DNA of 64,000 nucleotides from an uncultured Acidobacteriota bacterium (GTDB taxonomy: Bacteria; Acidobacteriota; Thermoanaerobaculia; UBA5066; Gp7-AA6), in the NCBI GenBank assembly GCA_963815865.1, contig CAWFIK010000003.1, forward strand, positions 283,771 through 347,770, written 5' to 3'. The notes beneath the pieces are model-generated. The model was not told the origin of the DNA. It was given only the letters and a program-made list of their open reading frames with translations, and did no database searches. Positions 4,326-24,830 of the stretch are shown here, piece by piece. The position numbers and the translations under genes were made by a program. How positions within the stretch are numbered: position 1 is the first letter of the stretch; each line of letters opens with the position of its first letter.

Positions 4326-4334
4326 GTTTTCCGC

Positions 4335-5327: not shown

Positions 5328-7268
5328 GTCACCGTCTCCACCGCCTTCTCCTCATCGCGCGACGCGGGCGCTTTCCCTCCGGGCGCCGCCAGGCGCGCGA
5401 GCTCCGGATACAGGGCGAGGACCGTCTCCACGACTCCCGCCGCGTCGAGCTTCAGGTTGGCCCGCTGGAGCGCCTGCGGGCTGTGCTCGACGAACTGGTC
5501 GGGGATCGCATGGACCCTCAACTTCTCGGACGGAAGGCCCGCCGCCTGGAAGGCCTCGAGCACGCCGCTCCCGAACCCGCCCGCCGAAAGGTGCTCTTCC
5601 AGCGTGAGGATGCGCGGCGTCATGATCGCGATCTGGCCGAGCAGCTCCCGGTCGAGCGGCTTGGCGAAGCGGGCGTCGGCGACGGCGCAATCGATCCGCC
5701 GCTCCTTGAGCATCTCCGCGGCGGCGAGGGCCACCGACACCATCGAGCCGTAGGCCAGCAGACAGACATCCTTCCCCTCGCGGAGGAGCTCTCCGCGCCC
5801 GATCGGGACCGTCTTGAGCTCCGGATCGAGATCGACGCCGACTCCGAGCCCGCGGGGATAGCGGATCGTGAACGGCCCGCCCGATTCGATCGCGGTGAAG
5901 AGGAGGTGCTGCAGCTCGTTCTCGTCCCTCGGCGCCGCGACGACCATGTTCGGCAGGGGGCGCGTGTAGGCGATGTCGAAGATCCCGTGGTGGGTCTTCC
6001 CGTCGTCGCCGACGAGGCCCGCCCGGTCCGCGCAGATCGTGACCGGGAGGTTCTGCAGGCAGACGTCGTGGATCAGCTGGTCGAACGCGCGCTGCAGGAA
6101 CGTCGAATAGATCGCGACGACCGGCTTCCATCCGGCCTTGGCCATGCCGGCCGCCATGATCACGGCGTGCTCTTCGGCGATCCCGACGTCGTACACGCGG
6201 TTGGGGAAGCGCCTCTGGACCTCGATCAGGGCGGTCCCCTCGAGCATCGCGGCGCTGATCGCGACGATCTTCTCGTCCTTCTCCATCAAGCGCAGGAGCG
6301 TCTTCGCGAAGACCTGGGAGTAGGTGTAACGCACGCCCGGGCCGGCGGCCGCCGAAGGGGTGCCCGGCTGGTGGAACCTGGAGGGGTTTTCCTCGGCCAG
6401 GGTGTAGCCGCGTCCCTTGTGCGTCAGGACGTGGACGACCACGGGCGTGCCTTCGCCGGAGATGTCCTTGACGCTCTTCAGGGCCTCGTCGAGCTCCTCC
6501 AGGTTGTGTCCGTCCACGGGTCCGATGTACTGGAGGCCCATCTCCTCCCAGATCAGGTTGGGGAAGAAGAGCCCCTCGACCGACGTCTTGACCTTGCGCG
6601 CGATCTTCCACGCTTCCTCGCCCAGGGGGAGCTTCGAGAGGAGCTTCTGTCCCGCCTCCGTCAGCTTCTGGTACTTGGGATGGAGCATCAACCGGTTGCG
6701 CCAGTGCGCGAGCCAGCCGACGTTCTCGGAGATCGACCAGCCGTTGTCGTTGAAGATCACGACGAGCCTTTTGGGCTTCAAGTGGACGATGTTGTTCAGG
6801 GCCTCGTAGCTCGGTCCCGAGGTCAGCGCGCCGTCTCCGACCACGGCGACGACGTACGGCTCTTCCGGGGCGTCCTGGAGCGCGACCGCCATCCCGAGCG
6901 CGTAGGACAGGCCCGGTCCCCGCGTGTCCTGCCGCGAGCATGTCGTGCGGGCTCTCCGCCGGCTCGGCGAAGCCGGACAGCCCGCCGGGCGTTCGAATCG
7001 TCGGGAACCGGTCCCGCCGGCCGGTCACGAGCTTGTGCGTGTAGCACTGGTTCGAGGTGTCCCAGACGATCCGGTCCTTCGGACTGTCGAACGCGCGGTG
7101 GAGGGCCAGCGTCAATTCCACGACGCCAAGGTTGGAGGCCAGGTGACCGCCGGTCCGGGTAATCGTCTCGACAATGACGTTGCGACAGTCCTGGGCGACC
7201 TCGCCCAGCTCCTCGATGCTCAAGGCCTTCAGGTCCTGAGGGCCTTCAATTTTGTCCAATCGTGACAT
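5318..7268 (-). CDS. dxs: 1-deoxy-D-xylulose-5-phosphate synthase, interrupted by a single-base frameshift near 6909-6920
   Basis: The N-terminal frame starting at 7268 reads MSRLDKIEGPQDLKALSIEELGEVAQDCRNVIVETITRTGGHLASNLGVVELTLALHRAFDSPKDRIVWDTSNQCYTHKLVTGRR...GLSGFAEPAESPHD. The C-terminal frame ending at 5318 continues LSYALGMAVALQDAPEEPYVVAVVGDGALTSG...IAEEHAV.... The frames switch in a GGG/CCC run (minus-strand ggggaccgggcctgtcc). Confidence 0.9.
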
Positions 7269-7400: not shown

Positions 7401-7473
7401 AGTGTTGCAATTCCCCGGCCGGGCGTGCAATCTCCCGTCTCGGGAGTTGGTCGAGAGGAGGTCCGGCAAGGAC

Positions 7474-8136
7474 ATGGATGGCTTCAAGATCGGGTCGGAC
7501 GAACACGCCCGTCTCTTCTGCGGGACGTTCGTCGAGACACACCGTCCGTTCCGGGCAGAGGACATCGTCTGGCCGGAGCTCGACCCGGAGAGCCTGGCGA
7601 GGTTGAAGGGCCTTCCCGTCTGGGACGAGGCGGCGCGGACCGAGGCCGCCACGGCGGTCAAGGTACAGACTCTCGGGGACACCGAGACGGACCCCGTGCT
7701 CAAGGAGGCGATCGCCCTCCAGGGGTACGAAGAGGGGCGCCATGCGGAGATCATCGCCCTCTTGACGAAGGCATACGGGATCGAGACGGCACCGTTTGGC
7801 GAGCCGGAGAAGCCGAAGAACCCGACGTGGACGTTCCTGCGCACCGGCTACGGCGAGTGCCTCGATTCCTTCTTCGCGTTCGGCCTCTTCGACATCGGGC
7901 GCAAAAGCGAGTTCTTCCACAAGGACCTGATCGCGATCTTCGACCAGATCATGCAGGAGGAGGCGCGGCACATCCTTTTCATCGTGAACTGGGCGGCCTA
8001 CCTGCGCGCCCGAAAGCCGTTCCCGCTGCGGCCAGTGTTCGACGCGCGGCGCGCCTGGAACATCGTTGCCCAGGCCTTCGACCGCGTGAAGGGCGCGATG
8101 CAGATGGCGGGCGGCGGCAACGGGAGACGGCGGTGA
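7474..8136 (+). CDS. Ferritin-like diiron-carboxylate protein (two E-x-x-H motifs)
   Basis: ATG at 7474 is preceded by GAGGAGG. The 220-aa product MDGFKIGSDEHARLF...YEEGRHAEIIALL...IMQEEARHILFIVNWAAY carries two EExxH motifs about 80 aa apart. It is transcribed divergently from dxs. Confidence 0.6.
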   Translation: MDGFKIGSDEHARLFCGTFVETHRPFRAEDIVWPELDPESLARLKGLPVWDEAARTEAATAVKVQTLGDTETDPVLKEAIALQGYEEGRHAEIIALLTKAYGIETAPFGEPEKPKNPTWTFLRTGYGECLDSFFAFGLFDIGRKSEFFHKDLIAIFDQIMQEEARHILFIVNWAAYLRARKPFPLRPVFDARRAWNIVAQAFDRVKGAMQMAGGGNGRRR

Positions 8137-8173
8137 GAAGAATGAGAAGAAGGGGACACAAGACGGATTCACG

Positions 8174-8380
8174 TTGAAGAGCCACTCGGCCTTCGGCGAC
8201 TTCAAACTGCGCTCGTTCCTGGAGCTCTGCCTGGCCGAGAACGAGCGGCGCCTCTCGCCATACGACCCGCGGCTCCTCCGCCCGACGCTCGTCCCCGGGT
8301 TCGTGCGGCGCTTCGTGAAGGTCTTGCCGAAGTCCAGGCCGGGACGCGGGACTCGGGACGCGGGACTCGAGCCAAGGTGA
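8174..8380 (+). CDS. Uncertain 68-aa ORF (TTG start) whose C-terminus is encoded by the (GGGACGC/GGGACTC) heptamer array
   Basis: Translation MKSHSAFGDFKLRSFLELCLAENERRLSPYDPRLLRPTLVPGFVRRFVKVLPKSRPGRGTRDAGLEPR* has a plausible composition. The repeat-derived tail PGRGTRDAGLE matches the repeat-derived HAD leader PRDSGLGTRDSGS. It is in the same frame as the downstream 8423 gene, separated by TGA at 8378-8380. Confidence 0.2.
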   Translation: MKSHSAFGDFKLRSFLELCLAENERRLSPYDPRLLRPTLVPGFVRRFVKVLPKSRPGRGTRDAGLEPR

Positions 8381-8420
8381 TCGTTCCGAGTTCCGAGTTC
8401 CGAGTCCCGGGTCCCGACTA
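8341..8420. repeat. Two heptamer arrays: (GGGACGC/GGGACTC)x4 at 8341-8368, a 17-nt spacer, then (CCGAGTT/CCGAGTC/CCGGGTC)x5 at 8386-8420, ending 2 nt before ATG 8423
   Basis: Directly visible. The first array uses the same GGGACTC unit as 3211-3245, in the same orientation relative to the downstream gene. Confidence 0.95.
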
Positions 8421-8422
8421 GG

Positions 8423-9586
8423 ATGGGAAACGACCTCGTCAGCGCCTGCGTTTTCTGCGCGGGCCTGCTTCTGGGGCTCGAGCTGCCGCCCCCCCCGGGC
8501 TACCACGCCGAGGTCGGGTTCTCCTATGCGACCGCGGCCCGGCGCTATCGGACGCCGGACGGGCTCGACGATGTTTCGGACGTCACGCCCAAGTTCGCCC
8601 TGGTCGGTTTCGGCTGGAATCGTCCGCCGGCCGCGGGACTGGGGGCCGGGACTCCCGAGGCGGAGTGGCGGGCGCGCGTCGCGCTCGGGCCCTCCCACGA
8701 CGAGCAGTCACAGGCCCCGCTGGCGATCACGAACACCAACGCGACCGGGACGGGGCGCTTCGAGAACTACGCGGTCGTTCTGCGTTACCCGTTCTCCTCG
8801 CGCGATTCCGTCGAGGTGGGTCTGACGCGGCGCTATCACTCCTCGACCGACGAGATCGACATCGGCCAGGAGCGCTTCGTGCTCTCCGAAACGCGAGTGC
8901 TGGCGGCCGAGCGAGTGGACGCCGGGATCGGGTGGAGGCACCGCTGGCCCGGGTTCGAAGCCGCGCTGTCGGAGCGCTACGTCCGGCCCAACGGCAGCAA
9001 CGCGACGGCCGGCGCCTTCCACATCACCGAGGGGCACCTCTGGGGCGGGACGGCGGAGGCGCGGGCGCGTTGGAAGGGATGGACGTTTTCCGGCTCCGCC
9101 GAATACGCCAGCGGCTCGCTCTCCGTCCACGAGGAGAACCAGCCGAACTTCGCGCCGCGCAACTTCGACGCGAAGGCGACGCTCGAGACCTACCGGCTGG
9201 GAGTCGGTCTCCTCCTCGGAAAGAGGGACTTTTTCCTGCAGGCGGCCTACGATCGTTCCCGCCTTCCGTTCGTGTCCCTCGCGGTCCTCGGCAGCGAGAT
9301 CGCGGCGTTCGAGTCGGGCTACCACCCGGATGCCCGCGCGCGCGTCGTCCTCTGGGACCTGACGGCGCGGCACGAGTTCGCGCCCGGCTTCCGCTTCAAG
9401 CTGCTCCTGCGCACCTCCCGCGGGGACGAGACGCTGACTCTGACGGATGCCTCCGGCGTCCTCCCTTCGCGACAGCTCGACGTCAAGCGGTCGGGCGTTT
9501 TCGGCGCCGGCCTCTCCCGCGCCCTCGGCAGCCCGGAGGCGACCCTCGGCTTCGGAGTGGAGCTTTCGCTGCCCGTCGCGAAGTGA
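8423..9586 (+). CDS. Hypothetical secreted/outer-membrane beta-barrel-like protein
   Basis: The 387-aa product has an N-terminal hydrophobic segment MGNDLVSACVFCAGLLLGLELPPPPG. It has alternating amphipathic, Gly/Tyr/Arg-rich beta-strand-like composition, and strong third-position GC periodicity. Confidence 0.5.
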   Translation: MGNDLVSACVFCAGLLLGLELPPPPGYHAEVGFSYATAARRYRTPDGLDDVSDVTPKFALVGFGWNRPPAAGLGAGTPEAEWRARVALGPSHDEQSQAPLAITNTNATGTGRFENYAVVLRYPFSSRDSVEVGLTRRYHSSTDEIDIGQERFVLSETRVLAAERVDAGIGWRHRWPGFEAALSERYVRPNGSNATAGAFHITEGHLWGGTAEARARWKGWTFSGSAEYASGSLSVHEENQPNFAPRNFDAKATLETYRLGVGLLLGKRDFFLQAAYDRSRLPFVSLAVLGSEIAAFESGYHPDARARVVLWDLTARHEFAPGFRFKLLLRTSRGDETLTLTDASGVLPSRQLDVKRSGVFGAGLSRALGSPEATLGFGVELSLPVAK

Positions 9587-9620
9587 TGTCGGAGATAATC
9601 CGTCTGCAACGGTGAGCTGC

Positions 9621-11216
9621 GTGAGGCGGATCCTCTGCGTCTTTCCCCGCTACGCCCGGTCGTTCGGGACGCTGCACCACGCCTACCCGCTCCTGCCGCG
9701 CGTGCGCGCCTTCATGCCGCCGCAGGGGCTCCTCCTGATCGCGGCCGCGCTGCCGGCCGGCTGGGAGGTCCGCTTCGTGGACGAGAACATGTCGGCGGCG
9801 CGCACCGAGGACTTCGCCTGGGCGGACGCGGTCTTCGTGACCGGCATGCACGTGCAGCGCGACTGCATCAACGACGTCAACGAGCGGGCGCACGCCGCCG
9901 GCAAGGTCACGGCGCTCGGAGGCCCCTCCGTCTCCGCGTCTCCCGAGTGGTACCCGGAATTCGACATCCTCCACATCGGGGAGCTGGGCGACGCGACGCG
10001 CGCTCTCTACGCGCGCCTGGACGAGACCGTCGAGCGGCCACTCGAGCAGATCCGCTTCACTACCGCGGACCGGACGCCGCTGACGGACTTTCCGACGCCC
10101 GCCTATCACCTGATCGACATCAAGCACTACTTCCTGGCGAGCGTGCAGTTCTCGAGCGGCTGTCCCTACCGCTGCGAGTTCTGCGACATCCCGGAGCTCT
10201 ACGGCAGGAACCCCCGATTGAAGAGCCCCGAGCAGGTCTGCCGCGAGCTCGACGCGATCGTCGCCGCGGGCCCTCCCGGCGCGATCTACTTCGTGGATGA
10301 CAACTTCATCGGCAACCAGAAGGCCACGCTCGAATTGCTGCCGCACCTCGTCGAATGGCAGCGGCGCACCGGCTACCGCGTTCGCTTCGCCTGCGAGGCG
10401 ACGCTGAACATCGCGCAGAACCGGAAGGTCCTGGAGCTCATGAGGGAGGCGTTCTTTCACACGGTGTTCATCGGCATCGAGACGCCGGACCCGGAAGCAC
10501 TGCGCGGGATGGTGAAGGACCAGAACCTTCGCCTTCCGATCCTGGAGGCCGTCGAGATCCTGAACTCCTACGGAATGGAGGTCGTCTCCGGGATCATCCT
10601 GGGACTCGATCAGGACACCGAGCATACGGCCGACGACATCCTGGCCTTCATCGAGGCGTCGAAGATCCCGATGCTCACGATCAATCTCCTGTACGCGCTC
10701 CCCAGGACCCCGCTCTGGCGCCGGCTGGAGAAGGAGGGCCGGATCCTCTCGGACGGAACCGGCGGAGAGGAGTCCAACGTCCAGTTCCTTCTCCCGCGAG
10801 ACGTCGTGCGGAGCAGCTGGTTGAAGTGCGTGGCGGAATCGAACAAGCCGGAACCGCTCTACCGCCGCTTCCAGCACCAGATCGAGAAGACCTATCCCAA
10901 CCGTTTCAACCCCGGCGCGCTGAGGAAGGTCGAGAGGAGCGACGTGGCCAACGGCTTCAAGATCCTCGGCCGGATCCTCTGGCGCGTGGGCCTGCGCTCA
11001 GACTACCGGAACGTCTTCTGGCGCATGGCGCGTCCGGCTTTGAAGCGCGGCGACATCGAGGCAGTCATCCACGTCGGCCTCGTCGCCCATCACCTGATCC
11101 GGTTCGCCCGCGACTGCGAGGCCGGCGTCGGCGAGTACTCCTTCTACTCCGAGAAGGGCGCCGCCTCGCGCTCCGGCTCGGCCGCCGACGTCCAGCCCGT
11201 CGGTGCCACCGGATAG
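9621..11216 (+). CDS. hpnJ: Cobalamin-binding radical SAM protein, hopanoid biosynthesis-associated HpnJ family
   Basis: Translation (M)RRILCVFPRYARSFGTLHHAYPLLP...FVTGMHVQ (B12-binding N-domain) and FSSGCPYRCEFCDIPELYG (CxxxCxxC radical-SAM cluster). It lies in the hopanoid context. The start is GTG at 9612 or 9621. Confidence 0.8.
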   Translation: MRRILCVFPRYARSFGTLHHAYPLLPRVRAFMPPQGLLLIAAALPAGWEVRFVDENMSAARTEDFAWADAVFVTGMHVQRDCINDVNERAHAAGKVTALGGPSVSASPEWYPEFDILHIGELGDATRALYARLDETVERPLEQIRFTTADRTPLTDFPTPAYHLIDIKHYFLASVQFSSGCPYRCEFCDIPELYGRNPRLKSPEQVCRELDAIVAAGPPGAIYFVDDNFIGNQKATLELLPHLVEWQRRTGYRVRFACEATLNIAQNRKVLELMREAFFHTVFIGIETPDPEALRGMVKDQNLRLPILEAVEILNSYGMEVVSGIILGLDQDTEHTADDILAFIEASKIPMLTINLLYALPRTPLWRRLEKEGRILSDGTGGEESNVQFLLPRDVVRSSWLKCVAESNKPEPLYRRFQHQIEKTYPNRFNPGALRKVERSDVANGFKILGRILWRVGLRSDYRNVFWRMARPALKRGDIEAVIHVGLVAHHLIRFARDCEAGVGEYSFYSEKGAASRSGSAADVQPVGATG

Positions 11217-13051
11217 GCACGCGTCCCCCACCGGCCGTGCCGCCGCTCGGCCAGGACGCCCTGCCCCGCTTCGCACTCTCCGTGCGACAGCAGGCGGCTG
11301 CGTGGGCCCTCGAGGAGGACGGTCGCCCCGGGCAGCATCAGGTCCCGGCCGCCGATGACGAAGACGCGATCGGAGGATTCCCAGCTCTTCAGAAACGCGT
11401 CCGGCGTCAGGAACACCTCCGGGGCGTCGCCGCGCCGGTAGCCGAAGAGCAGCTCCGGCCCCGGGCCCCCGAGGACCTGCGTCGCGAGGCCCGTATAGAA
11501 CGTGATCCCGCATGCCTCCTCGTAGTCTTCCGCCACGACGAGGCGGGATCCGGGCGCCCAATCCCGGTCGACGATCGCGGCGGCCGCGCGCTGGGATCGG
11601 TCTTCCCCGACCAGCCGCATCCCTCCGTCCGCCAGGCCGAGGACGAGCACGGCGCCGCCGACCCAGAGCGCGAAGGCGCGGAGGACCCGGGCCCGCCGGA
11701 TTAACAGGAAAGACAGGCCCCCGAGGATGAGGAGGACGATTGGAAAGGGGCGGGCCATCCGGAGAAGCTCGGTCCCGAACACCATGGCGGCTCCCGGATG
11801 GGACGCGAAATACTCCCGGTAGTAGCCGTCGAGATTGGAAACCAGCTCCGTCAGGCCGGCCGGGCCCGCTCGGGCCGAGAAGAAGACGATCGGCGCGAGG
11901 GCGAGCCCGATCCCGCCCACGATCAGGCTCGGCGTGAGAAAGGCGGGCGCGCGTCGGCTGCCGGTCATGAACCGGCGCCAGCCGGAGCCCAGGATCACGG
12001 CCAGCGCCGGAAAGGCGGGGAGCGCGTAGTACTCCATCCGGGAGCCGGTCAGCGTGAAGAAGAGCACGATCCCGGCCACCCAGATCCACGCGAGCGCCAG
12101 TCTCCGGCTCCACCGTCGCCCGCGCCGGGGAAGAGCGCTCGGAAGAAACAGGAACCAGGGGAAGATCCAGAGGAGCGTCGCAATCCAGAAATCTCTGATC
12201 GACAGCGGCGTGAAGTTCACGGGGTACCGCTGCCCCAGGAATCGGGCGAACTGCTCGTGGCCGAAGTAGAACGGGAGAAAGGCCGGGTCCTTCCACGCCA
12301 GGAGGACGTGCCAGGGGAGGAAGACGATCCCGACGATCGCGGCGCCGAGCCACGGGCGGAGCCTCCGGACGAAGTCCCGGCCGCCCACGAACAGCGCGTA
12401 CGCGGCGGCCGTCGCGAACGGAAAGAGGAGCCCGATCAATCCCTTCGTCAGGCCCGCGAGCGAAGCTCCCAGGAAGAACATCACCGGGCCGGCGAGACTC
12501 TCCCGCCTTCGGAGGGCCTTCGCCAGGCCGAGCAGCGAGACGCTCAGCCAGAAGACGAGCAGAGTGTCGGTGAAGAGAAAGCGGCCGAACAGGAACGGCC
12601 CGAGAGACGTCGCGTAGATGAGCGCGGCCAGCGGAGCGGTCCCGCTCCCGACGAGCTCCAGCGCCAGGAGAAAGGTCACGACGACCGTCCCGACGTAGGC
12701 CACCGCGCTCGGGAGCCGGGAGGCGAACTCCGTGAATCCGAGGAGCCGATAGGAGGCCGCGACGCACCAGTAGGTCAGCGGCGGCTTCTCGTAGTAACGC
12801 GCGTGGTTGAAGTGAGGCTGGATCCAGTCGCCGCTCTCCAGCATCTCCCGCGCGACGAGCGCGTAGCGTGCCTCGGCCGGGCTGATCAGCGGGCGCGCGC
12901 CGAGGCCGGAGAAGGCGAGCACCGAGGCGAGAAGCCCGCACCCGGCGAGGGAGACGAAGAGCGTGGGCCGCCGTCCCCGGGACGGCCCGTCGCGCGGAGA
13001 GGAATCTGTGCGACCCTCTGAGACGAGGTGGTTGATGCCTAACGGTATCAC
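11144..13051 (-). CDS. GT-C family 39 glycosyltransferase (ArnT/PMT-like; polyprenyl-phosphate-sugar dependent)
   Basis: A 635-aa polytopic membrane protein, GTG start at 13051, with the diagnostic block ESGDWIQPHFNHARYYEKPPLTYW. The 3' end overlaps the hpnJ 3' end convergently by about 70 nt. Confidence 0.8.
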   Translation of the reverse strand: MIPLGINHLVSEGRTDSSPRDGPSRGRRPTLFVSLAGCGLLASVLAFSGLGARPLISPAEARYALVAREMLESGDWIQPHFNHARYYEKPPLTYWCVAASYRLLGFTEFASRLPSAVAYVGTVVVTFLLALELVGSGTAPLAALIYATSLGPFLFGRFLFTDTLLVFWLSVSLLGLAKALRRRESLAGPVMFFLGASLAGLTKGLIGLLFPFATAAAYALFVGGRDFVRRLRPWLGAAIVGIVFLPWHVLLAWKDPAFLPFYFGHEQFARFLGQRYPVNFTPLSIRDFWIATLLWIFPWFLFLPSALPRRGRRWSRRLALAWIWVAGIVLFFTLTGSRMEYYALPAFPALAVILGSGWRRFMTGSRRAPAFLTPSLIVGGIGLALAPIVFFSARAGPAGLTELVSNLDGYYREYFASHPGAAMVFGTELLRMARPFPIVLLILGGLSFLLIRRARVLRAFALWVGGAVLVLGLADGGMRLVGEDRSQRAAAAIVDRDWAPGSRLVVAEDYEEACGITFYTGLATQVLGGPGPELLFGYRRGDAPEVFLTPDAFLKSWESSDRVFVIGGRDLMLPGATVLLEGPRSRLLSHGECEAGQGVLAERRHGRWGTRAYPVAPTGWTSAAEPEREAAPFSE

Positions 13052-13101
13052 CCGCCCGCGGGGCGCAACAGGTCTGAAAACGAGTCTCGGCGTGGCCGCG
13101 C

Positions 13102-14102
13102 CCTAATGAAGCCAGCCGGGACCCGATGGCCGCGAACAAGCCCCCTTCGCCGCCGAGCGCTCGCATCCACGAGAGCTGTGCGAGGACCCCCTCGATCGCC
13201 CAGTCGTCTTCCGACTGCGCGAAGAGATGGTTCGATTCGCCGGCGAGGAGCGCGCTCGGAAACGCGCGCAGGTACTCGAGCCCGTTGTCGCGGAACCAGG
13301 CCTGCACTTGCGCGAGCGTGTGCCGATGCTCCTCGACGGGATGATATTGATCGCGCAGCCACGCCTCGCGGCGCTCCGGCTGCGCGCGGCGGTCGCGCAG
13401 GACGGGATCCCACGGGATCCACCGGAACCCGGTCAGGCGCGCGACGGCGCGCCGCAGGCGCAGCGGCAGGCGCGCGTAGGCGTTGTAGAGCCCGACGACG
13501 AGAACGCCGCCCGGACGTACGAGGCGCGCCACGGAGGCGAACGACGCCCTCGGATCGGGAGTGTGGTGCAGGACACCCGAGCAAATCACGACGTCGAACG
13601 CCTCGCGCGCGAACCCCGGCGACCGCAGGTCCGTCTCCACGAAGGCAACGCCGGCGAGTCCGTAGCGCCCGGCCGCCGCGCGCGCGAGCGCGAGCGAGGG
13701 GCGCGCCAGGTCGGCGCCGACGACGACGCGGTCCGCGCTCGCCAGAAACAGGCTCAACTGTCCCGTCCCGCACCCCAGCTCCAGCACGGCCGCGTCGCCG
13801 GGAATCGACTCGTCCAGCCGCCGCGCGAACTCGCTGCGGGCGGCGCGGGCACGCAGGGCCGCAAGGCTGTCGCGCGGCGGGTAGCCGGGAAATGGCGCCC
13901 GCGAGTAGAACGCGCGCACTCTCTCGGTACGTGGATCGGAAGGGAGTCTCAGATCGGGAATGCCGCCGGGCGCGGTGTACTGCTCCGCGCAGGCGGCGCA
14001 GCGAAGGCCCGCCGGGGGAAATGGGGGACCGCAAGGGCCCCCGCTTGAGACCAGTCCGCCGCCGCAGCGCGGGCAGGCGAGCAGGTCGTCAAAAGATGGC
14101 AT
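13102..14102 (-). CDS. Class I SAM-dependent methyltransferase with N-terminal Trm112-like zinc ribbon; no in-frame stop found
   Basis: Translation MPSFDDLLACPRCGGGL...LRCAACAEQY (Cys4 ribbon) then AAVLELGCGTGQLSLFLA...DVVICSGVLHHTPDP (SAM-binding motifs I and post-I). The frame runs on with no stop into Arg-rich non-protein-like sequence. A TAG lies in the +1 frame at 13102-13104 just before the GT39 start. The 3' end is therefore uncertain, and a frameshift is suspected. Confidence 0.65.
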
Positions 14103-14301
14103 AGACGAACGGCGCCAGCGCCTCGACCGCGGCCGCCAGCACGAGCACGAGCCCGGTCGCGCAGAGGAAGATCAGGAGTGGCACCAGCCACTTGCGTCCC
14201 GATTCGCTGCGCCACAGTCCCCGCGCCCCGTCGGCAATCGTGGGAAAGGCGCTTCCCAGAATGAGCATCGTGCGCGTGAGCTTTCCGCGGCGCTTGATCA
14301 T
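14089..14301 (-). CDS. Small 2-TM membrane protein of the kind often found downstream of NodU/CmcH carbamoyltransferases
   Basis: The 70-aa product is MIKRRGKLTRTMLILGSAFPTIADGARGLWRSESGRKWLVPLLIFLCATGLVLVLAAAVEALAPFVYAIF. ATG at 14299-14301 overlaps the carbamoyltransferase stop (ATGA). The stop overlaps the methyltransferase start. Confidence 0.55.
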   Translation of the reverse strand: MIKRRGKLTRTMLILGSAFPTIADGARGLWRSESGRKWLVPLLIFLCATGLVLVLAAAVEALAPFVYAIF

Positions 14302-16067
14302 GCGACGGCCTCCGGCGCGGCCTGCGCCACCCTCGGCTTGGCGACGACGGCCTCCCCCGCGACGAGGAGGTCGATTCCGGAGCGGCGGAAGGTCGAGTAG
14401 CCCTCGACGGCGCGGTTGACGATCGGCTCGCCGGCGAGGTTGAAGCTGGTGTTCAGGAGGACCGGGATGCCGGTCAGCGCTCCGTACGCCTCGAGGAGCG
14501 CATGGAAGCGCGGGGCCATCTGCGGGTCCACGGTCTGCACGCGCGCGGTCCCATCCACGTGCGTAACCGCCGCGAGGCGCTCGCGCCACTCGCGGCGCAC
14601 CGGGAAGACCCCCGACATGTAACGTCCAAGCCGCGCGCCGCCGGGCGGCAGCTCGAAGAACCGCTCCGCCTGCCCGAGCGGCACCGCGGGTGCGAACGGC
14701 CGGAACTCCTCGCGATACTTGATCGAGCGGTTCAGCCGGTCGCGCATCGCGGCGTCGTGGGGCGCGGCGAGGATGCTGCGATTGCCGAGCGCCCGCGGGC
14801 CGAGCTCCGCCGGGCCCTGCATCCAGCCGACGATGCGACCGCGCGCGAGCTCGCGGGCGATCCGATCGGTCAGCGCGGACTCGCGGGGCAGCTCTTCGAA
14901 GTCGAGCCCGTCCTCCCGCGCGACCCGGGAAAGCTCGCGCGCGTCGATCGGCGGTCCCCAGTACGGATGGTCCGGGACGGCGCGGTGCGGCCTGCGGAAA
15001 TGCAGGCGGTCCGCGACGAGCGCCGCTCCGAGCGCGCAGCCGGCGTCGCCCGGAGCGCTCGGCACGTAGACGTTGCGGAAACCCGACTCGCGCAGAATGC
15101 GCGCGTTGGCGCAGCCGTTCAGCGCGACGCCGCCCCCGAGGCAGAGGTCGTCGAGGCCGGTCTCCTGCCGGAGCGAGCGCGCCAGGTCCACGAGGATTTC
15201 CTCGAGCACCCGCTGGACGCTCGCCGCGATGTCCGCGTACCGCGCACCTTCGGGCGTCGCGAGGTCGATCGGCTCCAGCGGATCGCGCGGCGGCCCCAGC
15301 TCTTCCACGAAGCGGTCGGAGAAACTCCGCCGCGCTCCTTCGTGGTATTCGAAATACGACAGGTCGAGCGCGATCGCGCCATCGGCTGTGTGCCGCACCA
15401 TCTTGCGCACCTGCGGCTCGAAGGCCGGCTTGCCGTAGGAGGCGAGCCCCATCACCTTGTACTCGCCTTCGTTGACCGGGAAGCCGAGATAGGCCGTGAA
15501 GGTCGAGTAGAGCATTCCGAGCGAATGCGGGAAGCGCAGCTCGCGAAGGAGCTCGAGCGTGATGGCGCCGTCGTCGGCGATCGCGCCGCGGCCGAGCGAG
15601 AGCGTCGCCCACTCGCCGACGCCGTCGGCGGTCAGGATCGCGGCCCGGCGCGTCGGCGCGGTCAGGAACGCCGCGGCCGCGTGCGACTGGTGGTGCTCGG
15701 CGAAGAGGATGCGCTTGCCCGGCACCCCGAGCTGCGAGGAGATGATTCCCTTGACCCAGAGCTTGCCGCCGAGGGCGTTCTTCATCGCGCGCGGAAAGCT
15801 CGGCCAGGAGCGCGGAAAACCGCGCAGCGCCATCGTCAGGATCCGCTCGAATTTGAGCATCGGCTTCTCGTAGAAGACAACCGCGTCCAGGTCCTCGGGC
15901 TCTAATCCGCCGCGCTCCAGGCACCATTCGATCGCCGCGAGCGGGAACGACGCGTCGTTCTTGCGCCGCGAGAGGCGTTCTTCCTGGACCGCGCAGACGG
16001 GAACGCCGTCGGCGAGGAGGGCCGCGGCCGAATCGTGGTAGTGCGCCGAAATGCCGAGGATTTTCAT
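14298..16067 (-). CDS. Carbamoyltransferase, NodU/CmcH/NovN family
   Basis: A 589-aa protein, MKILGISAHYHDSAAALLADGVPVCAVQEERLSRRKNDASFP...HHQSHAAAAF...LCLGGGVALNGCAN...THVDGTARVQTV, matching the YrdC/Kae1-like carbamoyltransferase architecture. ATG at 16065-16067 overlaps the upstream stop (TGATG). Confidence 0.9.
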   Translation of the reverse strand: MKILGISAHYHDSAAALLADGVPVCAVQEERLSRRKNDASFPLAAIEWCLERGGLEPEDLDAVVFYEKPMLKFERILTMALRGFPRSWPSFPRAMKNALGGKLWVKGIISSQLGVPGKRILFAEHHQSHAAAAFLTAPTRRAAILTADGVGEWATLSLGRGAIADDGAITLELLRELRFPHSLGMLYSTFTAYLGFPVNEGEYKVMGLASYGKPAFEPQVRKMVRHTADGAIALDLSYFEYHEGARRSFSDRFVEELGPPRDPLEPIDLATPEGARYADIAASVQRVLEEILVDLARSLRQETGLDDLCLGGGVALNGCANARILRESGFRNVYVPSAPGDAGCALGAALVADRLHFRRPHRAVPDHPYWGPPIDARELSRVAREDGLDFEELPRESALTDRIARELARGRIVGWMQGPAELGPRALGNRSILAAPHDAAMRDRLNRSIKYREEFRPFAPAVPLGQAERFFELPPGGARLGRYMSGVFPVRREWRERLAAVTHVDGTARVQTVDPQMAPRFHALLEAYGALTGIPVLLNTSFNLAGEPIVNRAVEGYSTFRRSGIDLLVAGEAVVAKPRVAQAAPEAVA

Positions 16068-16801
16068 CAGTACTGACTCTCCAGTTTCAAAACCGCGCGC
16101 GACGGGGCGAACCCCTCGGGCTCCCGCCGCGCCGCGCGCTTGGCGAGGAGGGAGAAGAGCGGCAGGATCACGAAATACTGGACGGCGAGCATCACCGTCC
16201 CGAGCAAGGCCGCTATCGCGGTGGCGATTCGGAGATATGCCTTCCAGAGCCGCCCGGCGCGCGCCTGCCACAGGCGCCATCCCTGTCGCCGCGGGGAGAG
16301 GCGGGCGAGCTGCTTGCGGGTGTAGGTCATGTGGAACACCTCGTCTTCGAGGATGCGGGCGAACATCGCGCGTGACGGCGGGTCGCAGGCGAGCACTCTT
16401 TCGTAAATGACGAAGCGGCCGGCCGCGGCTTTCTCGGACAGATGGAGAAACGCCAGGAGCGCTTCGTCTCCTCCCGACCCGACGTCGAGATCGTCGAGCC
16501 CGCGTTCTCCCGGCGCCAGCCAGTTCGCCTCGAACACCGCGCCGCTCGAGGAGTCGAGCAGCTCCCGCCCGCGCCGCTCGAAGAGAAACGCATGCCGCTG
16601 CTCGTCGTCGGCGTGCCGGAGATAGAGGCGGCGCAGCGTTGGATCGGACGTGAGCTCGGCCGCGCGGCTGATGTCGCGCGCGCCGTCGGCCTCCGTCGCG
16701 GAGAAGCTCAGCATCTTGCGCGCGCGCCGCTGGACGTCGCCCCACACCCAACGGTGCACCGGCGTGAGGAGCAGGTCCCAGGTCGACGGCGCGGCTCGCA
16801 T
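16067..16801 (-). CDS. Ferritin-like diiron-carboxylate protein with C-terminal transmembrane anchor
   Basis: Motifs LRHADDEQRHAF and ILEDEVFHMTY (ExxH x2), followed by hydrophobic LRIATAIAALLGTVMLAVQYFVILPLFSLLA. It is the first gene of the carbamoyltransferase operon. The start is M at 16801 or at the internal MLSFS near 16714. Confidence 0.6.
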   Translation of the reverse strand: MRAAPSTWDLLLTPVHRWVWGDVQRRARKMLSFSATEADGARDISRAAELTSDPTLRRLYLRHADDEQRHAFLFERRGRELLDSSSGAVFEANWLAPGERGLDDLDVGSGGDEALLAFLHLSEKAAAGRFVIYERVLACDPPSRAMFARILEDEVFHMTYTRKQLARLSPRRQGWRLWQARAGRLWKAYLRIATAIAALLGTVMLAVQYFVILPLFSLLAKRAARREPEGFAPSRAVLKLESQY

Positions 16802-16964
16802 GAATTCACGTTAGTCCCGCGTTCTCGCGAGCGTTTGGATTTATGGCAATTCTTAAAATCAACTCAGAGGCTAAACGTGAGAAATGTGCGAAAACTCTGC
16901 CAATCCTCGACGAGGAACGAGGTCGCTCGTTGGCGCGGTACGTTGTTTGCTCCTTTCCACGCCG

Positions 16965-17765
16965 ATGGGCAGGTGCTGTCTTCGGATTCTGTTGCTGGTT
17001 ATCGCCTCCGGCGTCATGGCGGCGGAGCCGGTGAGAGTGCGCCACACGGAGGGCGTGGTGCACGGTTTTCTGGCGCTGCGAACGCTCGAGGGGGAGACTC
17101 TGGCGGACGGCGATCTGATCCAGGCCTTCCGGGGGGGCCGCGTCACGAGCCGCCTCGTCTTTCACTTCAAAGACGGGTCGATCCACGACGAGACGGTCGT
17201 GTTCACCGAGCGGGGCCTCTTCCGGCTCGTCAGCGACCATCTCGTCCAGAAGGGACCGAGCTTTCCGCATCCGATCGATGTGACGATCGATGGAACCTCC
17301 GGGGATGTCCGTGTCGTTTATCAGGAGGACAATGAAGAAAAGAAACGATTGACGAAGCGGATGAAGCTGCCCGACGACGTCTCCAACGGACTGATGCTGA
17401 CGCTGCTCAAGAACATCGACTCCCGGTCGGCGATCACGAGAGTCTCGATGGTCGCCGCGACTCCCAAGCCGAGGCTCGTCAAGCTCGCCGTTTCACCGGA
17501 GGGGGAGGACCCATTCTCGACCGGAGGCTCCTCACGCAAGGCGATCCGGTACGTCGTCAAGGTCGAGATCGGCGGCATCGCCGGAGTGCTCGCTCCGATT
17601 GTCGGTAAGCAGCCTCCGGACACCCGTGTTTGGATCCTCACGGGCGAGGCCCCCGCCTTCGTCAAGTCGGAGGGGCCTCTCTTTTTCGGGGGGCCGGTCT
17701 GGCGGATCGAGCTGCTGAGCCCCATTTGGCCGCGGACTCCCTCGCCGTCCGCCACGCCCGGTTGA
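16965..17765 (+). CDS. Hypothetical secreted protein
   Basis: Signal-peptide-like N-terminus MGRCCLRILLLVIASGVMAAEP with good coding periodicity. I recognise no family. Confidence 0.5.
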   Translation: MGRCCLRILLLVIASGVMAAEPVRVRHTEGVVHGFLALRTLEGETLADGDLIQAFRGGRVTSRLVFHFKDGSIHDETVVFTERGLFRLVSDHLVQKGPSFPHPIDVTIDGTSGDVRVVYQEDNEEKKRLTKRMKLPDDVSNGLMLTLLKNIDSRSAITRVSMVAATPKPRLVKLAVSPEGEDPFSTGGSSRKAIRYVVKVEIGGIAGVLAPIVGKQPPDTRVWILTGEAPAFVKSEGPLFFGGPVWRIELLSPIWPRTPSPSATPG

Positions 17766-17781
17766 GGCGGAGCGTCCGCCC

Positions 17782-18957
17782 TTGAGCCGGTCTTCCGACA
17801 GGTCCCGTGTGGCCGTTCGCGCCGTCGCGTTTCTCGCGCTTGCCGCGCCCGCTGCCGGACTCGTGTGGTTCGCCGCGATCGCAAAGGAAGCCTGGTTCGA
17901 GCGCCATATCGTCGTGCCCGCGTACCGTCTTCCTCCACCGGGCTGGGCGCTGCCGGCGCTGCGGACCGGCGCGGCCGTCCTCGGCCTCGCTCTCGCCGCG
18001 TGCGCCGTCGCCGCGGGCCGGCGGGCGACGGCAGGGGGAGCGGCGCGGGTCGCGGCCGCGCTCGCGCTGTCGCTCTGCGCTTGCGAGCTCGTGCTGCGGT
18101 GGATGCGGCGGCCCGAGCCCGAGATGCCCGACCCCCGCCTCGAGTGGATCCTCGGCGCGCCCGACGCGCGCACCGGATGGGCGTTCGTTCCGAACCGGAC
18201 CATGGACCTGCCGCGGCGCGGCCGCCAGCGGATCGCGCGATATGCAATCGACGCGCACGGCGACCGCGCTCCTTCGCAGGACTGGGTCGAGGATCCGCAA
18301 GCGCCGACGCTCCTCTTGACCGGCGAATCGACCGCCGTCGGGCACGGCCTGCAGTGGCCCGACACGGTCGCGGCGCAACTGTCCGAGAAGCTGCGCATGC
18401 AGGTCGTCAACGTCGCCGAGGGGGGATACGGAAGCGATCAGGCGCACCTGCGCGCCGTGGACGCGCTGCCGCGCTTCGCGCATCCGCTCGCGGTCGTGAC
18501 GCTGGTGCTGCCGGTGCAGCTCCACCGCAACATCCAGGATGATCACCCGCGCCTCGTCGTGCGCGACGGGGCGCTCGTCGTCGAGCCCGCGTCCCGCTCG
18601 CCGTTCCGGCTCCGGCAGGTGTTCGTGGACGAGATCCCTTATCTCTCCGAGAGGGATCTCGAGCGGAGCCTGACGCTCACGCGTGAGATCCTCCACGCCA
18701 CCGCCGACGCCGCGCGGGCGCGCGGCGCGTGGCCGCTCTTCGTCGTGCCGTGCATCGGGCCGCAACGCCCGGCGGAGGCGCGTCCCGAGGCGTTCGTCGT
18801 GAGCGCGCTGCTCGACGACCTGCCGCACGTGGTCGTAGACATCGAGCCGGCGGAGCTGATTCCCTTCGACGGCCATCCCGACCGCGCCGGCGCCGCCCGG
18901 ATCGCCGACGCCATCGCCGGCGCACTCGCGCCGCTGCTGCGGCCGCCGGCCGGTTGA
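17782..18957 (+). CDS. Membrane-anchored SGNH/GDSL-like hydrolase family protein (tentative)
   Basis: TTG start. An N-terminal TM segment VAVRAVAFLALAAPAAGLVWFAAI, then a block LLLTGESTAVGHGLQWPD resembling the SGNH catalytic Ser block. Otherwise unrecognised. Confidence 0.45.
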   Translation: MSRSSDRSRVAVRAVAFLALAAPAAGLVWFAAIAKEAWFERHIVVPAYRLPPPGWALPALRTGAAVLGLALAACAVAAGRRATAGGAARVAAALALSLCACELVLRWMRRPEPEMPDPRLEWILGAPDARTGWAFVPNRTMDLPRRGRQRIARYAIDAHGDRAPSQDWVEDPQAPTLLLTGESTAVGHGLQWPDTVAAQLSEKLRMQVVNVAEGGYGSDQAHLRAVDALPRFAHPLAVVTLVLPVQLHRNIQDDHPRLVVRDGALVVEPASRSPFRLRQVFVDEIPYLSERDLERSLTLTREILHATADAARARGAWPLFVVPCIGPQRPAEARPEAFVVSALLDDLPHVVVDIEPAELIPFDGHPDRAGAARIADAIAGALAPLLRPPAG

Positions 18958-18991
18958 CGAAAGACGGGGAATCCTGTTTTGGGTTCGCAGG

Positions 18992-19897
18992 TCAGGGGCC
19001 GATGACGACCGCGGGCTCGCCGGCGTCGAGGGCCAGAACGACGCGCTTGCGGATCGCGAAGAGCTCGAGGCGCGAGATCTTGGAGCCGGGGCCCCGCTCC
19101 TCGACCTTCCTCAGCGTCGCCCAGGCAAGCTCCGTCGGGAGGGCGCAGAACTCGACGAGGCCTCGCGGCGCCTCGGCGCGTTGCAGCGCGAGGGTGTATT
19201 CAGCCGCGACGTGAAGGTCGCGGCGGGCCAGCGCGAAGACCTCGGAGCGCGCGACTCCACGCGGCAGGTAGCTTCGTCCCTCGGTGACGTCCACAGCCGC
19301 GTCCTTCAGAATGTTGACGAGTTGGAGGGCCTCGCCGAAGGTCGCGGCGCGCTCGCGCAGATATGGAGCGGCCGGCCGGAGCGTCTCGCGGTTCAGGAGG
19401 AAGAGCGCGGAGAGCATCTCTCCGACAATCCCGGCGACCGCGTAGCAGTAGTTGCGCAGATCGCGGAGATCGTTCAAGACAAGCGCGCCGCCGTCCGTGC
19501 GGCCGACGAAGACCGCCATCCCCTCGGCCGAGCGGCAGACGTGATCCCGCACAGAGGCGACAGCCTCGGGCTCGAGCGCGAAGAACGCTTCGAGGACGAA
19601 CGGCGTCTCCGTGACGAGCCGCCGGTAGCCGGCGTGGGGCGAAACTCCGGCCCCGGTCCACTGTCGCGCCAGCCGGTCTGCCTTCGCGGGGGAGAAATCG
19701 CGCAGCAGGTCCTGGAACTCCCGGAGCGCTTCGATGCGGCGCTCCGGCGGCCAGTGGGCCGCGTCCTCGAACGTGTCGGCGATCCGGAAGAGGAGATACG
19801 CGATCATGACCTGGCGCCGCGTCGGCTCGGGGAGCACGGGGATCGAGAGCGCGAACGTGCGGCTCGTCTTCTCCAGCAGTTCTTCGAGCGTCGTCAT
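18992..19897 (-). CDS. Squalene/phytoene synthase family protein (HpnC/HpnD/SQS-type, hopanoid precursor synthesis)
   Basis: The 301-aa product is MTTLEELLEKTSRTFALSIPVLPEPTRRQVMIAYLLFRIADTFEDAAH...NYCYAVAGIVGEMLSALF...LQLVNILKDAAVDVTEGRSYLP. These are trans-isoprenyl diphosphate synthase head-to-head motifs. ATG at 19897 overlaps the hpnG stop. Confidence 0.8.
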   Translation of the reverse strand: MTTLEELLEKTSRTFALSIPVLPEPTRRQVMIAYLLFRIADTFEDAAHWPPERRIEALREFQDLLRDFSPAKADRLARQWTGAGVSPHAGYRRLVTETPFVLEAFFALEPEAVASVRDHVCRSAEGMAVFVGRTDGGALVLNDLRDLRNYCYAVAGIVGEMLSALFLLNRETLRPAAPYLRERAATFGEALQLVNILKDAAVDVTEGRSYLPRGVARSEVFALARRDLHVAAEYTLALQRAEAPRGLVEFCALPTELAWATLRKVEERGPGSKISRLELFAIRKRVVLALDAGEPAVVIGP

Positions 19898-20634
19898 TCG
19901 AGTCCGTCCGCGAGGAATCGTTCGAGGAAGAGGGAAAGCTGCTTCGCGCAATCCAGGGTGCGGCGGCGCAGCCGGAAGAGGTCCGGGATCCTCGAGGGGC
20001 GGGCAAGCGCGCGAGCGACGACGGCGCCGCGGCGAATCGCGCCGTCCTCGCCCAGGCACTCGGCGAGGTACTCGGGCAGGCCCTCGTCCGCGCCGTCGCT
20101 GATCGAACGGACGACGACGTAGGGGATGCCGCGCGAGGCGGCCACGCGCGCCCAGGCGGCCGATTCCATGTCCACGGCGCAGACGCCTTCGAGGGTCGCG
20201 GCCAGCCGCGTCTTCTCGGCCGCGGACGTGACCGGCCTCCCGACCGTCAGGAGCGTGCCCTCCTCCGCGCCGGCCTCGAGGGCCCGGGAAAGGAGGCGGG
20301 CGTCGGGCGCTGGCGCCTCCCCGGCGGAGTCGCGGATGCGTTTGCCGGCGACGATCGCGCCGACGCCGAGCCCGGGGGAGAGAGCCCCGGCGATGCCGGC
20401 GCCGACGACGGCCTGCGGGCGCGTCCGCTCGCAGAAGGACTCCGCTCTCTCGCCCGCCCTCTCCGGACCGTCTCCCGTCGCCGCGATGACGACGTCCGTC
20501 GTTCCGAGCTGCGCGCCGATGACGCCTCTCCACTGGTAATGGATCCGCGAGGCGCGCCGGAGGATCGCGTTCAAGTCGAGCTCCTCGGAGATCGCCGTCA
20601 GGATGAGGACCCCGTTCGGCCTATCCGCGGACAT
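19894..20634 (-). CDS. hpnG: Hopanoid-associated phosphorylase/nucleosidase (PNP/MTAN family)
   Basis: The 246-aa product is MSADRPNGVLILTAISEELDL...VIAATGDGPERAG...VCAVDMESAAWARVAASRGIPYVVVRSISD, a nucleoside phosphorylase fold. It sits between hpnA and the squalene synthase-like gene. Confidence 0.8.
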   Translation of the reverse strand: MSADRPNGVLILTAISEELDLNAILRRASRIHYQWRGVIGAQLGTTDVVIAATGDGPERAGERAESFCERTRPQAVVGAGIAGALSPGLGVGAIVAGKRIRDSAGEAPAPDARLLSRALEAGAEEGTLLTVGRPVTSAAEKTRLAATLEGVCAVDMESAAWARVAASRGIPYVVVRSISDGADEGLPEYLAECLGEDGAIRRGAVVARALARPSRIPDLFRLRRRTLDCAKQLSLFLERFLADGLE

Positions 20635-24656: not shown

Positions 24657-24830
24657 GATGCGCTGTCGCCGGGGTCCTCCATCGGACCGGATCGCCCCGC
24701 TTGATTCCCTCCGCGTTGCCGGGAGTGTAATCCCTCCGCCCGGAACGCCCCCAACCGTCCCATCGCGGAGTATACGGTCCCGGCCGGAGAGGCGATTCAG
24801 GAGAAGCGCTCGATCACGGATAATGCCCTC

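Follow-up and report, generated by a model that had tools for sequence, protein, structure and literature searches.

What is a carbamoyltransferase operon doing in the midst of a hopanoid locus? The question is raised by a 64,000-nucleotide stretch of DNA from an uncultured Acidobacteriota bacterium (contig CAWFIK010000003.1), referred to here as the window, in which five minus-strand genes encode, in order, a ferritin-like diiron protein, an O-carbamoyltransferase (CT), a small membrane protein of the DUF5989 family, a class I S-adenosylmethionine (SAM) methyltransferase (MT) and an ArnT-like glycosyltransferase of the GT-C type (Table 1). A first-pass annotation read this operon as a lipid head-group tailoring module and took hopanoid side chains as its most economical target. 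The description as a tailoring module holds in so far as a co-transcribed, membrane-associated set of CT, MT, diiron protein and ArnT-like enzyme does lie inside a real hpn cluster; a dedication to hopanoids is not supported, as the linkage is not conserved. The reading that we favor, and to which we give an even chance, is that the diiron, CT, DUF5989 and MT genes, together with a divergently transcribed gene for an SGNH hydrolase, form a self-contained, horizontally spread and membrane-tethered envelope-tailoring unit rather than a dedicated hopanoid module.

Homologues of the CT are abundant (more than 7900 at E<=1e-50), as are those of the diiron protein (more than 4,000), and both come mostly from soil metagenomes. 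A scan for CT homologues with one genome per species gave at least 80 loci, each taken with 10 kb on either side, which divide into a clade with at least 67% identity to the window CT and other clades with 54% or less. The closer clade covers, among the matches listed, about 36 GTDB species in four phyla, with hosts in the Acidobacteriota (Bryobacteraceae, Thermoanaerobaculia and gp6), the Myxococcota (Polyangia), the Sphingomonadales, Caulobacter, Phenylobacterium and the Steroidobacteraceae; the nearest relatives of the CT among those matches are 'MFD' Acidobacteriota metagenome-assembled genomes (MAGs), at 81% identity. When 18 window proteins were compared with all loci by tblastn, the diiron, CT, DUF5989 and MT genes were found adjacent to one another in every sufficiently long locus of this clade, with the SGNH gene mostly divergent and upstream. 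The same comparison found no homologue of the GT-C enzyme, the neighboring B12-binding radical-SAM protein, shc, hpnH, hpnA, hpnG, the squalene-synthase-like gene, dxs or ispH within 10 kb in the ~36 species-level loci, and clustering of the open reading frames (ORFs) of 35 loci disclosed no further gene common to more than 6 of them. The conserved unit is thus SGNH/diiron/CT/DUF5989/MT, and not the minus-strand operon with a hopanoid connection that had been proposed.

The settings of this cassette include hydrogenase genes (locus L001), LigD/Ku genes (L082 and L083) and aro genes with an ABC transporter (L085). In the cultured Sphingobium sp. TomTYG65 (L166; AP027331.1, ~148.6-157.3 kb) the cassette is carried on the 1.28-Mb replicon pTomTYG65a, where it adjoins an ECF sigma factor, a serine protease and the kdp operon, and its products are 30% (SGNH), 47% (diiron), 66% (CT, annotated as 'nolO'), 63% (DUF5989) and 60% (MT) identical to those of the window. 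The identity of the CT between Acidobacteriota, Myxococcota and Alphaproteobacteria is 70-81%, which fits horizontal spread.

The closest relatives, found by a metagenome scan with the diiron protein and by contig look-ups, place the hopanoid connection more precisely. Genes of the hpn type stand beside the cassette only in the window and in contigs L084 and L100, whose diiron proteins are 84-85% identical to that of the window: hpnH-hpnA-hpnG and the squalene synthase gene (sqs) in L084, and sqs in L100. They are not found upstream of the cassette in the close relatives L085, L091, L093, L095 and L097. In L084, moreover, an antitoxin gene and another ORF lie between the cassette and the sqs/hpn genes, so that the junction itself is variable. 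As judged from these comparisons, the adjacency needs no more than one event of insertion or rearrangement, confined to one sub-lineage, to explain it. The GT-C gene has a similarly narrow range. It lies 3' of the MT gene in the window, L085, L092 and L097 (76-78% identity), that is, in all four of the informative contigs with a diiron identity of at least 79%, and tblastn found no homologue of it within 10 kb of any more distant cassette. It appears to be a lineage-specific addition, and a separate event slightly older than the hpn adjacency would explain its distribution.

How are the genes laid out in the window? The DNA is ~69% GC, as a result of which long spurious ORFs are abundant, and the real frames were chosen by the GC content of third codon positions (GC3). 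Five co-directional minus-strand ORFs with coding-type GC3 run from 16801 down to 11144, in agreement with the five genes first called, and three of the junctions described for them are exact: TGATG at 16067, ATGA at 14298-14301 and a 14-nt overlap at 14089-14102. An overlap of stop and start codons had been claimed throughout, but it is not present between the MT and GT-C genes, as the MT frame has no stop there. A scan of 10800-19200 for promoters and terminators gave no signal above shuffled expectation that would mark the ends of the operon. The ORF at 13048-14034 (328 aa) and other Arg-rich ORFs were rejected as frame artefacts of 70% GC DNA.

The CT matches both domains of its family, Carbam_trans_N (PF02543; 2.4e-69, residues 2-350) and Carbam_trans_C (PF16861; 3e-62, residues 404-577), and aligns over its full length with 7xb6 (2.9e-88), GdmN, NovN and TobZ in the PDB, at E values of 1e-67 to 1e-88. 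The His-rich motifs ISAHYHD and AEHHQSH are visible in its sequence. Against the NodU equivalog NF041651 it scores 161.9 bits, below the cut-off of 1000. By hydropathy, neither the CT nor the MT has a hydrophobic segment; such segments are present in the diiron, DUF5989 and SGNH proteins. The DUF5989 protein (PF19451, 38.1 bits against a cut-off of 27) is hydrophobic over residues 36-70. A hidden Markov model (HMM) built from the DUF5989 proteins of the clade finds matches in 81 of 85 CT loci, mostly just before or after the CT gene and in some loci up to ~3 kb away. A literature search for DUF5989 found no paper.

The diiron protein carries the ligand set E, ExxH, E, ExxH (E37, E67, H70, E123, E154 and H157), all six residues of which are invariant in 32 sequences. 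The AlphaFold2 (AF2) model, with a pLDDT of 81.6, is a four-helix bundle (helices 23-50, 54-84, 112-136 and 141-168) with a long C-terminal helix (173-226), and a long disordered insert at ~85-111 holds an invariant EANWLAPGERG motif. The top folds returned by Foldseek, those of a Dps-like protein, of bacterioferritin and of rubrerythrin, have target-normalized TM-scores of 0.65-0.70 and E values of 0.02 or more. Pfam and NCBIfam scans of the window protein at E<=0.01 gave no match, Rubrerythrin (PF02915) included; JGI labels many of its homologues 'rubrerythrin', and a few carry PF02915. The membrane anchor had been placed at the N terminus, but the sole hydrophobic stretch is C-terminal, at residues 188-221.

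This C-terminal segment links the protein to other CT loci. The HMM of the diiron family matches ORFs of ~70-120 aa immediately upstream of the CT gene at more than 20 loci of other CT clades, and these matches span HMM positions 161-235 alone, which correspond to a hydrophobic hairpin with basic flanks. The window hairpin matches the small upstream ORFs with E values from 1e-4 to 4e-9, and it is homologous to the small membrane protein that they encode. One of these ORFs, from L075, has a weak match to the Pfam family SxtJ (PF19588), with E 0.057 and 14.6 bits, under the cut-off of 24.4, a family that finds no match in the window diiron protein or in its C-terminal 81 residues. In the cyanobacterial saxitoxin clusters, the carbamoyltransferase SxtI, of the NodU/CmcH family, is bordered by a pair of very small proteins without an assigned function, SxtJ and SxtK, with the GDSL lipase SxtL beside them (PMC2679770, PMC2885083). 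From the hairpin-ORF and DUF5989 matches across CT loci, the ancestral unit would therefore be a small membrane protein, a CT and a DUF5989 protein, and in the clade of the window the first peptide of this sxtJ/sxtI/sxtK-like arrangement is fused to a ferritin-like domain.

The wider family of CT loci also gives some indication of the company that this triad keeps. In the CT clades at 54% identity or less, where neighbor functions were assigned by eye from the sequences and not by Pfam, the genes nearby include a UXS-like epimerase (14 loci), a DegT-type aminotransferase (12), a GT4 glycosyltransferase (10), a Gfo/Idh/MocA oxidoreductase (9), a UDP-glucose dehydrogenase (6) and a WbaP-like initiating transferase (6), a pattern that suggests that the CT triad usually belongs with glycan biosynthesis.

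In the SGNH protein, the catalytic SGNH domain comes after three hydrophobic helices at the N terminus. The AF2 model has a pLDDT of 93.3, and GES183, G215, N250 and D363-x-H365 are kept without exception in 34 homologues. Its Pfam match to ALGX (8.7e-5, 22.7 bits) is under the cut-off of 26.5. Foldseek matches in the PDB, with E values from 4.8e-7 to 1e-4, are CgnD (8a2n), TesA, an acetyl-xylan esterase and PatB. The gene is transcribed divergently from the operon and its homologues adjoin the diiron gene in most related loci; it is a conserved member of the cassette, one that the operon as first drawn did not include. The 293-aa protein encoded next to it has no Pfam match and a hydrophobic N-terminal segment at residues 21-50. 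Homologues of this protein (56-67% identity) are encoded beside the SGNH gene in L084, L134, L141, L149 and L164, on the far side of that gene and so in the reverse order to the window, and the 293-aa gene is a sporadic accessory.

The MT matches Methyltransf_11, _25, _31, _12 and _23 of Pfam over residues 84-277, and its N-terminal, zinc-ribbon-like CPxC...CxxC...GIPDLR motif is conserved in 30 homologues. Trm112p gives no Pfam match in this protein at E<=0.01, and the Trm112-type label attached to it derives from that motif. Read from 14102, the MT frame is without a stop codon until 10998 (an ORF of 1034 aa), with coding-type GC3 ending at ~13100, whereas MT homologues terminate 3-10 residues past the motif EGGLFxxxGxR. 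Removal of one A from the AA at 13105-13106 (TT on the coding strand) gives the ending ...GSRLAS-TAG, with a stop at 13103-13105 and a gap of ~50 nt before the GTG at 13051 that starts the GT-C gene; in L085, the closest complete relative, the MT terminates with ...VGCRPS* and its end overlaps the GT-C start. The ORF at 10998-14102 was rejected as a genuine MT fusion: its GC3 is non-coding past ~13100, and the GT-C frame has both coding signal and homology. Two further genes of the window are broken in the same manner. The dxs gene is split across two minus-strand frames near 6930, with the N-terminal ~115 residues in ORF 5352-7268 and the remainder in ORF 5318-7024, and a MetH-like cobalamin-dependent methionine synthase extends over three overlapping plus-strand ORFs in three frames (24705-26807, 26605-27582 and 27305-28303). 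We read all three breaks as indels typical of long-read assembly, which is what their pattern suggests, although real mutations are also possible. Extra class I methyltransferase genes, one or two per locus, were seen near the cassette in up to six Sphingomonadales loci (L016, L024, L025, L027, L028 and L046).

The GT-C enzyme matches PMT_2 (PF13231, 63.3 bits against a cut-off of 26.1) and PMT (PF02366, 61.9 against 22.7) and has ~11-13 hydrophobic segments and a C-terminal soluble part. Its closest structure is ArnT (PDB 5EZM, 2e-28), over residues 41-390 only, and its score against the ArnT equivalog PRK13279 is 134.1 bits, below the cut-off of 567. It had been labeled 'GT39 (ArnT-like)'; the likeness to ArnT stands, at a level below the equivalog, and ArnT belongs to CAZy family GT83, not GT39.

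How might such a unit work? TobZ makes carbamoyl-adenylate from carbamoyl phosphate and ATP and then carbamoylates a hydroxyl group, and the soluble TobZ/NodU-type CT of the cassette would follow the same course. The hairpin in the SxtJ position, fused to the diiron domain, and the DUF5989 protein in the SxtK position would form a complex that holds the CT to the inner membrane, on its cytoplasmic side. Here the diiron domain probably serves as an oxidase or hydroxylase of the acceptor that the CT modifies, which would lie embedded in the membrane and also be methylated by the zinc-ribbon-like MT. By analogy with what has been proposed for SxtL, the SGNH hydrolase, which probably faces outward, may take off or transfer an acyl or carbamoyl group once export has taken place. 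In the narrow lineage of the window, the appended ArnT-like enzyme would add a sugar from a polyprenyl-phosphate donor at the outer face. No biosynthetic genes belong to the cassette itself. Its acceptor is most likely to be in wide supply and associated with the membrane, whether as a glycan or polysaccharide linked to a lipid or as a lipid of the membrane.

Several points weigh against this account of an envelope-tailoring unit. The acceptor is not fixed by any characterized homologue, SxtJ and SxtK themselves being uncharacterized, and the glycan context concerns CT clades at 54% identity or less and not the clade of the window. The relation to SxtJ depends on the sub-threshold E value of one small ORF, and the window protein itself is without a Pfam match. 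The ferritin fold match is weak, and the modeled domain could be a non-catalytic iron-binding or regulatory one. The topology of the SGNH protein is read from hydropathy and charge distribution. Finally, the hpn genes do lie beside the cassette in the window, L084 and L100, with isoprenoid and hopanoid genes on both sides of it in the window; chance insertion explains this arrangement and does not predict it.

That last point is the foundation of the leading rival, hopanoid side-chain tailoring, which we consider unlikely. It holds that the CT makes 35-O-carbamoyl bacteriohopanepolyols (BHPs), that the diiron protein adds the hydroxyls of bacteriohopanepentol (BHpentol) and bacteriohopanehexol (BHhexol), that the MT gives methyl ethers or other methylated derivatives, and that the GT-C enzyme glycosylates the side chain at the outer face. 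The window is a genuine hopanoid locus, more clearly so than was first stated: shc, hpnH, hpnA and hpnG- and squalene-synthase-like genes lie on one side of the operon, and on the other are dxs (557.8 bits against a cut-off of 466), ispH and an HpnL-like membrane protein (122.9 against 195.65, under the cut-off). Membrane tethering would suit a lipid acceptor, and a literature search on carbamoyl and methylcarbamate hopanoids found no gene assigned to BHP carbamoylation. The carbamoyl BHPs of Enhydrobacter aerosaccus are mainly pentol and hexol derivatives (PMC12583986), which would match a hydroxylase and CT pair, and some hosts of the cassette, such as the Bryobacteraceae, belong to hopanoid-producing groups (PMC5462960). 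Set against this are the confinement of the adjacency to one sub-lineage, its variable junction, its absence from the next closest relatives, and the lack of any hopanoid gene within 10 kb in the ~36 species-level genomes and in most metagenome contigs.

The hosts give a second line of evidence. The hopene cyclase gene shc is found in 3 of 55 Caulobacter, 3 of 61 Phenylobacterium, 77 of 409 Sphingomonas and 2 of 123 Sphingobium genomes (PMC12583986), so that it occurs in ~5% of genomes of the first two genera, and the reference genomes of Allosphingosinicella have no shc (PMC12583986, Table 2 footnote e). The cassette is present in three Allosphingosinicella MAG species, at least four Phenylobacterium MAG species and one Sphingobium isolate. 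Cultured Acidobacteria of subdivisions 6 and 23 have neither hopanoids nor hopanoid genes (PMC5462960), and the cassette occurs in one gp6 and one Thermoanaerobaculia MAG. Of 52 strains, E. aerosaccus alone was found to have carbamoyl BHPs, and the Sphingomonadales strains analyzed had none (PMC12583986). The known producers of carbamoyl BHPs, E. aerosaccus, Rhodoblastus acidophilus and R. palustris, are not among the hosts in the matches listed. These inferences, which are all at the level of genus, point away from a hopanoid-specific role. The first-pass annotation had looked to homologous operons in non-hopanoid producers, set among genes for lipopolysaccharide (LPS) modification, as the pattern that would speak against hopanoids. 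At genus level the cassette does occur in such producers, and the LPS setting is not seen because the cassette is without any conserved context.

A narrower form of the hopanoid proposal would apply only to the lineage of the window. There the cassette might have become the machinery for carbamoylated, extra-hydroxylated BHPs, with a diiron hydroxylase and a CT held by SxtJ/SxtK-like peptides and with methyl and sugar decorations added by the MT and the GT-C enzyme; more generally, SxtJ and DUF5989 peptides might be scaffolds that make a soluble CT lipid-modifying. We regard this as decidedly unlikely.

If hopanoids are set aside, the acceptor could be a diffusible secondary metabolite or an external compound, tailored as by SxtI/J/K/L or by the crocagin set of CT, MT, oxygenase and the SGNH-like CgnD. 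The gene types do parallel sxtI-J-K-L (PMC2679770, PMC2885083), the closest solved CTs (GdmN, NovN and TobZ) are natural-product enzymes, the best fold match of the SGNH protein is CgnD (8a2n, 4.8e-7), and the cassette is horizontally spread and independent of context. The match to CgnD, however, is at 14% identity and a TM-score of ~0.45-0.58, with generic SGNH esterases scoring nearly equal; three of the five cassette proteins are membrane-anchored; and no conserved scaffold gene (nonribosomal peptide synthetase, polyketide synthase, precursor of a ribosomally synthesized and post-translationally modified peptide, or amidinotransferase) was found within 10 kb in 35 loci. A metabolite acceptor is therefore quite improbable in our estimate.

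Modification of LPS or lipid A of the ArnT or RgtA kind, in which the GT-C enzyme would transfer a sugar to lipid A or core while the cassette decorates the sugar or its lipid carrier, draws on the similarity of that enzyme to ArnT and on its operonic position in the lineage of the window, and we judge it very improbable, given that the enzyme is absent from cassettes outside this narrow lineage and falls well under the ArnT equivalog cut-off (134 bits against 567), that lpx, waa, arn and kds genes were not found near any cassette examined, and that ~10 of the host species among the matches listed are Sphingomonadales, which have glycosphingolipids instead of LPS. Carbamoylation of core heptose by a NodU-family enzyme has reportedly been proposed in Pseudomonas.

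The remaining neighbors of the operon can be dealt with briefly. Two plus-strand genes, for the 293-aa and SGNH proteins, separate the diiron gene from the squalene-synthase-like gene. At the other end, the operon converges on a gene that had been called hpnJ, an identification that is not sustained. Its product is a B12-binding radical-SAM protein with the Pfam domains B12-binding, Radical_SAM and DUF4070; its score on TIGR03471, the model for HpnJ, is 59.9 bits, where the cut-off is 577.6, and its best NCBIfam match is the PhpK family (84 against 600). On the NCBIfam cut-offs it was rejected as HpnJ, HpnR (56 against 650) or HpnP, and tblastn found no homologue of it within 10 kb of the cassette at related loci. 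With two genes at 7402-8136 and 8423-9586, neither of which has a Pfam or NCBIfam match, it makes up a plus-strand trio at 7402-11216 inside the hopanoid cluster, which could be an uncharacterized hopanoid- or isoprenoid-related module. The left end of the window (1-4334, minus strand), beside ispH, encodes a class III aminotransferase truncated by the edge of the window, a 294-aa protein of unknown function, a nucleotidyltransferase-like protein, a HAD hydrolase and the HpnL-like protein, and may be a further side-chain module. Elsewhere, a giant minus-strand ORF at 49533-58388 (2952 aa) has strong coding-type GC3.

Table 1. Features of the cassette and of its surroundings in the window; bit scores are given with the respective cut-off
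Feature	Position	Strand	Size and basis
Ferritin-like diiron protein	16067-16801	-	244 aa; invariant ligands, AF2 fold
Diiron protein, ferritin-like domain	residues ~23-168		AF2, hydropathy
Diiron protein, C-terminal hydrophobic hairpin	residues ~173-226		AF2, hydropathy
O-carbamoyltransferase (CT), NodU/CmcH/TobZ family	14298-16067	-	589 aa; Pfam Carbam_trans_N and Carbam_trans_C
DUF5989 small membrane protein	14089-14301	-	70 aa; Pfam; translational coupling with both adjacent genes
Class I SAM methyltransferase (MT)	13103-14102	-	~332 aa; end assumes a 1-nt correction at 13105-13106
ArnT-like GT-C glycosyltransferase	11144-13051	-	635 aa; PMT_2/PMT; start GTG 13051
Membrane-anchored SGNH/GDSL-type hydrolase	17782-18957	+	391 aa; AF2 model, conserved catalytic blocks
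Secreted-looking 293-aa protein	16884-17765	+	293 aa; coding-type GC3
B12-binding radical-SAM/DUF4070 protein, convergent neighbor	9447-11216, likely start ~9621	+	Pfam
Squalene-synthase-like	18992-19897	-	NCBIfam 92.7 vs 286.75, under cut-off
hpnG-like	19894-20634	-	NCBIfam HpnG 133.9 vs 187, under cut-off
hpnA	20621-21607	-	NCBIfam 475.3 vs 367.7
hpnH	21622-22623	-	NCBIfam 356.9 vs 225
shc	22620-24656	-	hopene cyclase, NCBIfam 677.9 vs 431.1

What would an answer to the question of the acceptor bring? The protein families are known, as is the sxtIJK(L) arrangement, which is known and unexplained. New, as far as the searched literature shows, are the five-gene cassette as a conserved unit, the fusion of a ferritin-like domain to an SxtJ-position peptide, and the wide distribution of the cassette. 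The cassette keeps 70-80% identity across phyla and has no characterized member. The identity of its acceptor would assign a function to DUF5989, to the SxtJ-position peptides, which have gone unexplained since the saxitoxin cluster was described, and to a new family of membrane-anchored ferritin-like proteins. If the acceptor were a hopanoid, the cassette would hold the genes behind carbamoyl BHPs and perhaps those behind BHpentol and BHhexol, compounds that serve as geochemical biomarkers. Otherwise, the window is a warning against the assignment of function from a single hpn-adjacent occurrence. Cultured hosts exist, among them the tractable Sphingobium sp. TomTYG65 and Sphingomonas sp. PR090111-T3T-6A, and the cassette is a good experimental target.

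The comparison with known systems brings out what is shared and what is particular. With the hopanoid side-chain enzymes (HpnG/H/I/J/K/O) the cassette shares a genomic neighborhood only, and no cassette protein belongs to an hpn family. With ArnT, the window GT-C enzyme has in common the PMT_2 domain, the multi-spanning N-terminal half and an alignment of ~350 residues to 5EZM; in contrast to ArnT, it has no arnA-F genes alongside and is tied to a carbamoylation cassette, in one lineage only. The diiron protein shares the four-helix bundle and the E/ExxH/E/ExxH ligands with rubrerythrin, bacterioferritin and Dps-like proteins, and adds to these a disordered insert and a membrane hairpin of the CT-peptide type; the membrane-bound relative Coq7 offers a functional analogy, with catalysis here being predicted.

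The CT has the same two-domain architecture, Kae1-like and YrdC-like, as TobZ, GdmN and NovN. These enzymes belong to dedicated clusters and modify soluble antibiotics, and no small membrane proteins are known as obligatory partners for them, whereas the window CT belongs to a distinct and very conserved clade. The nearest parallel is the SxtI-SxtJ-SxtK(-SxtL) block, which has the same gene types as the cassette, the GDSL/SGNH hydrolase included (PMC2679770, PMC2885083). The DUF5989 protein occupies the SxtK position by layout. In contrast to the Sxt block, the toxin scaffold genes are absent, an MT with a zinc-ribbon-like motif is a fixed member of the cassette, and the module in the SxtJ position is fused to a ferritin-like domain.

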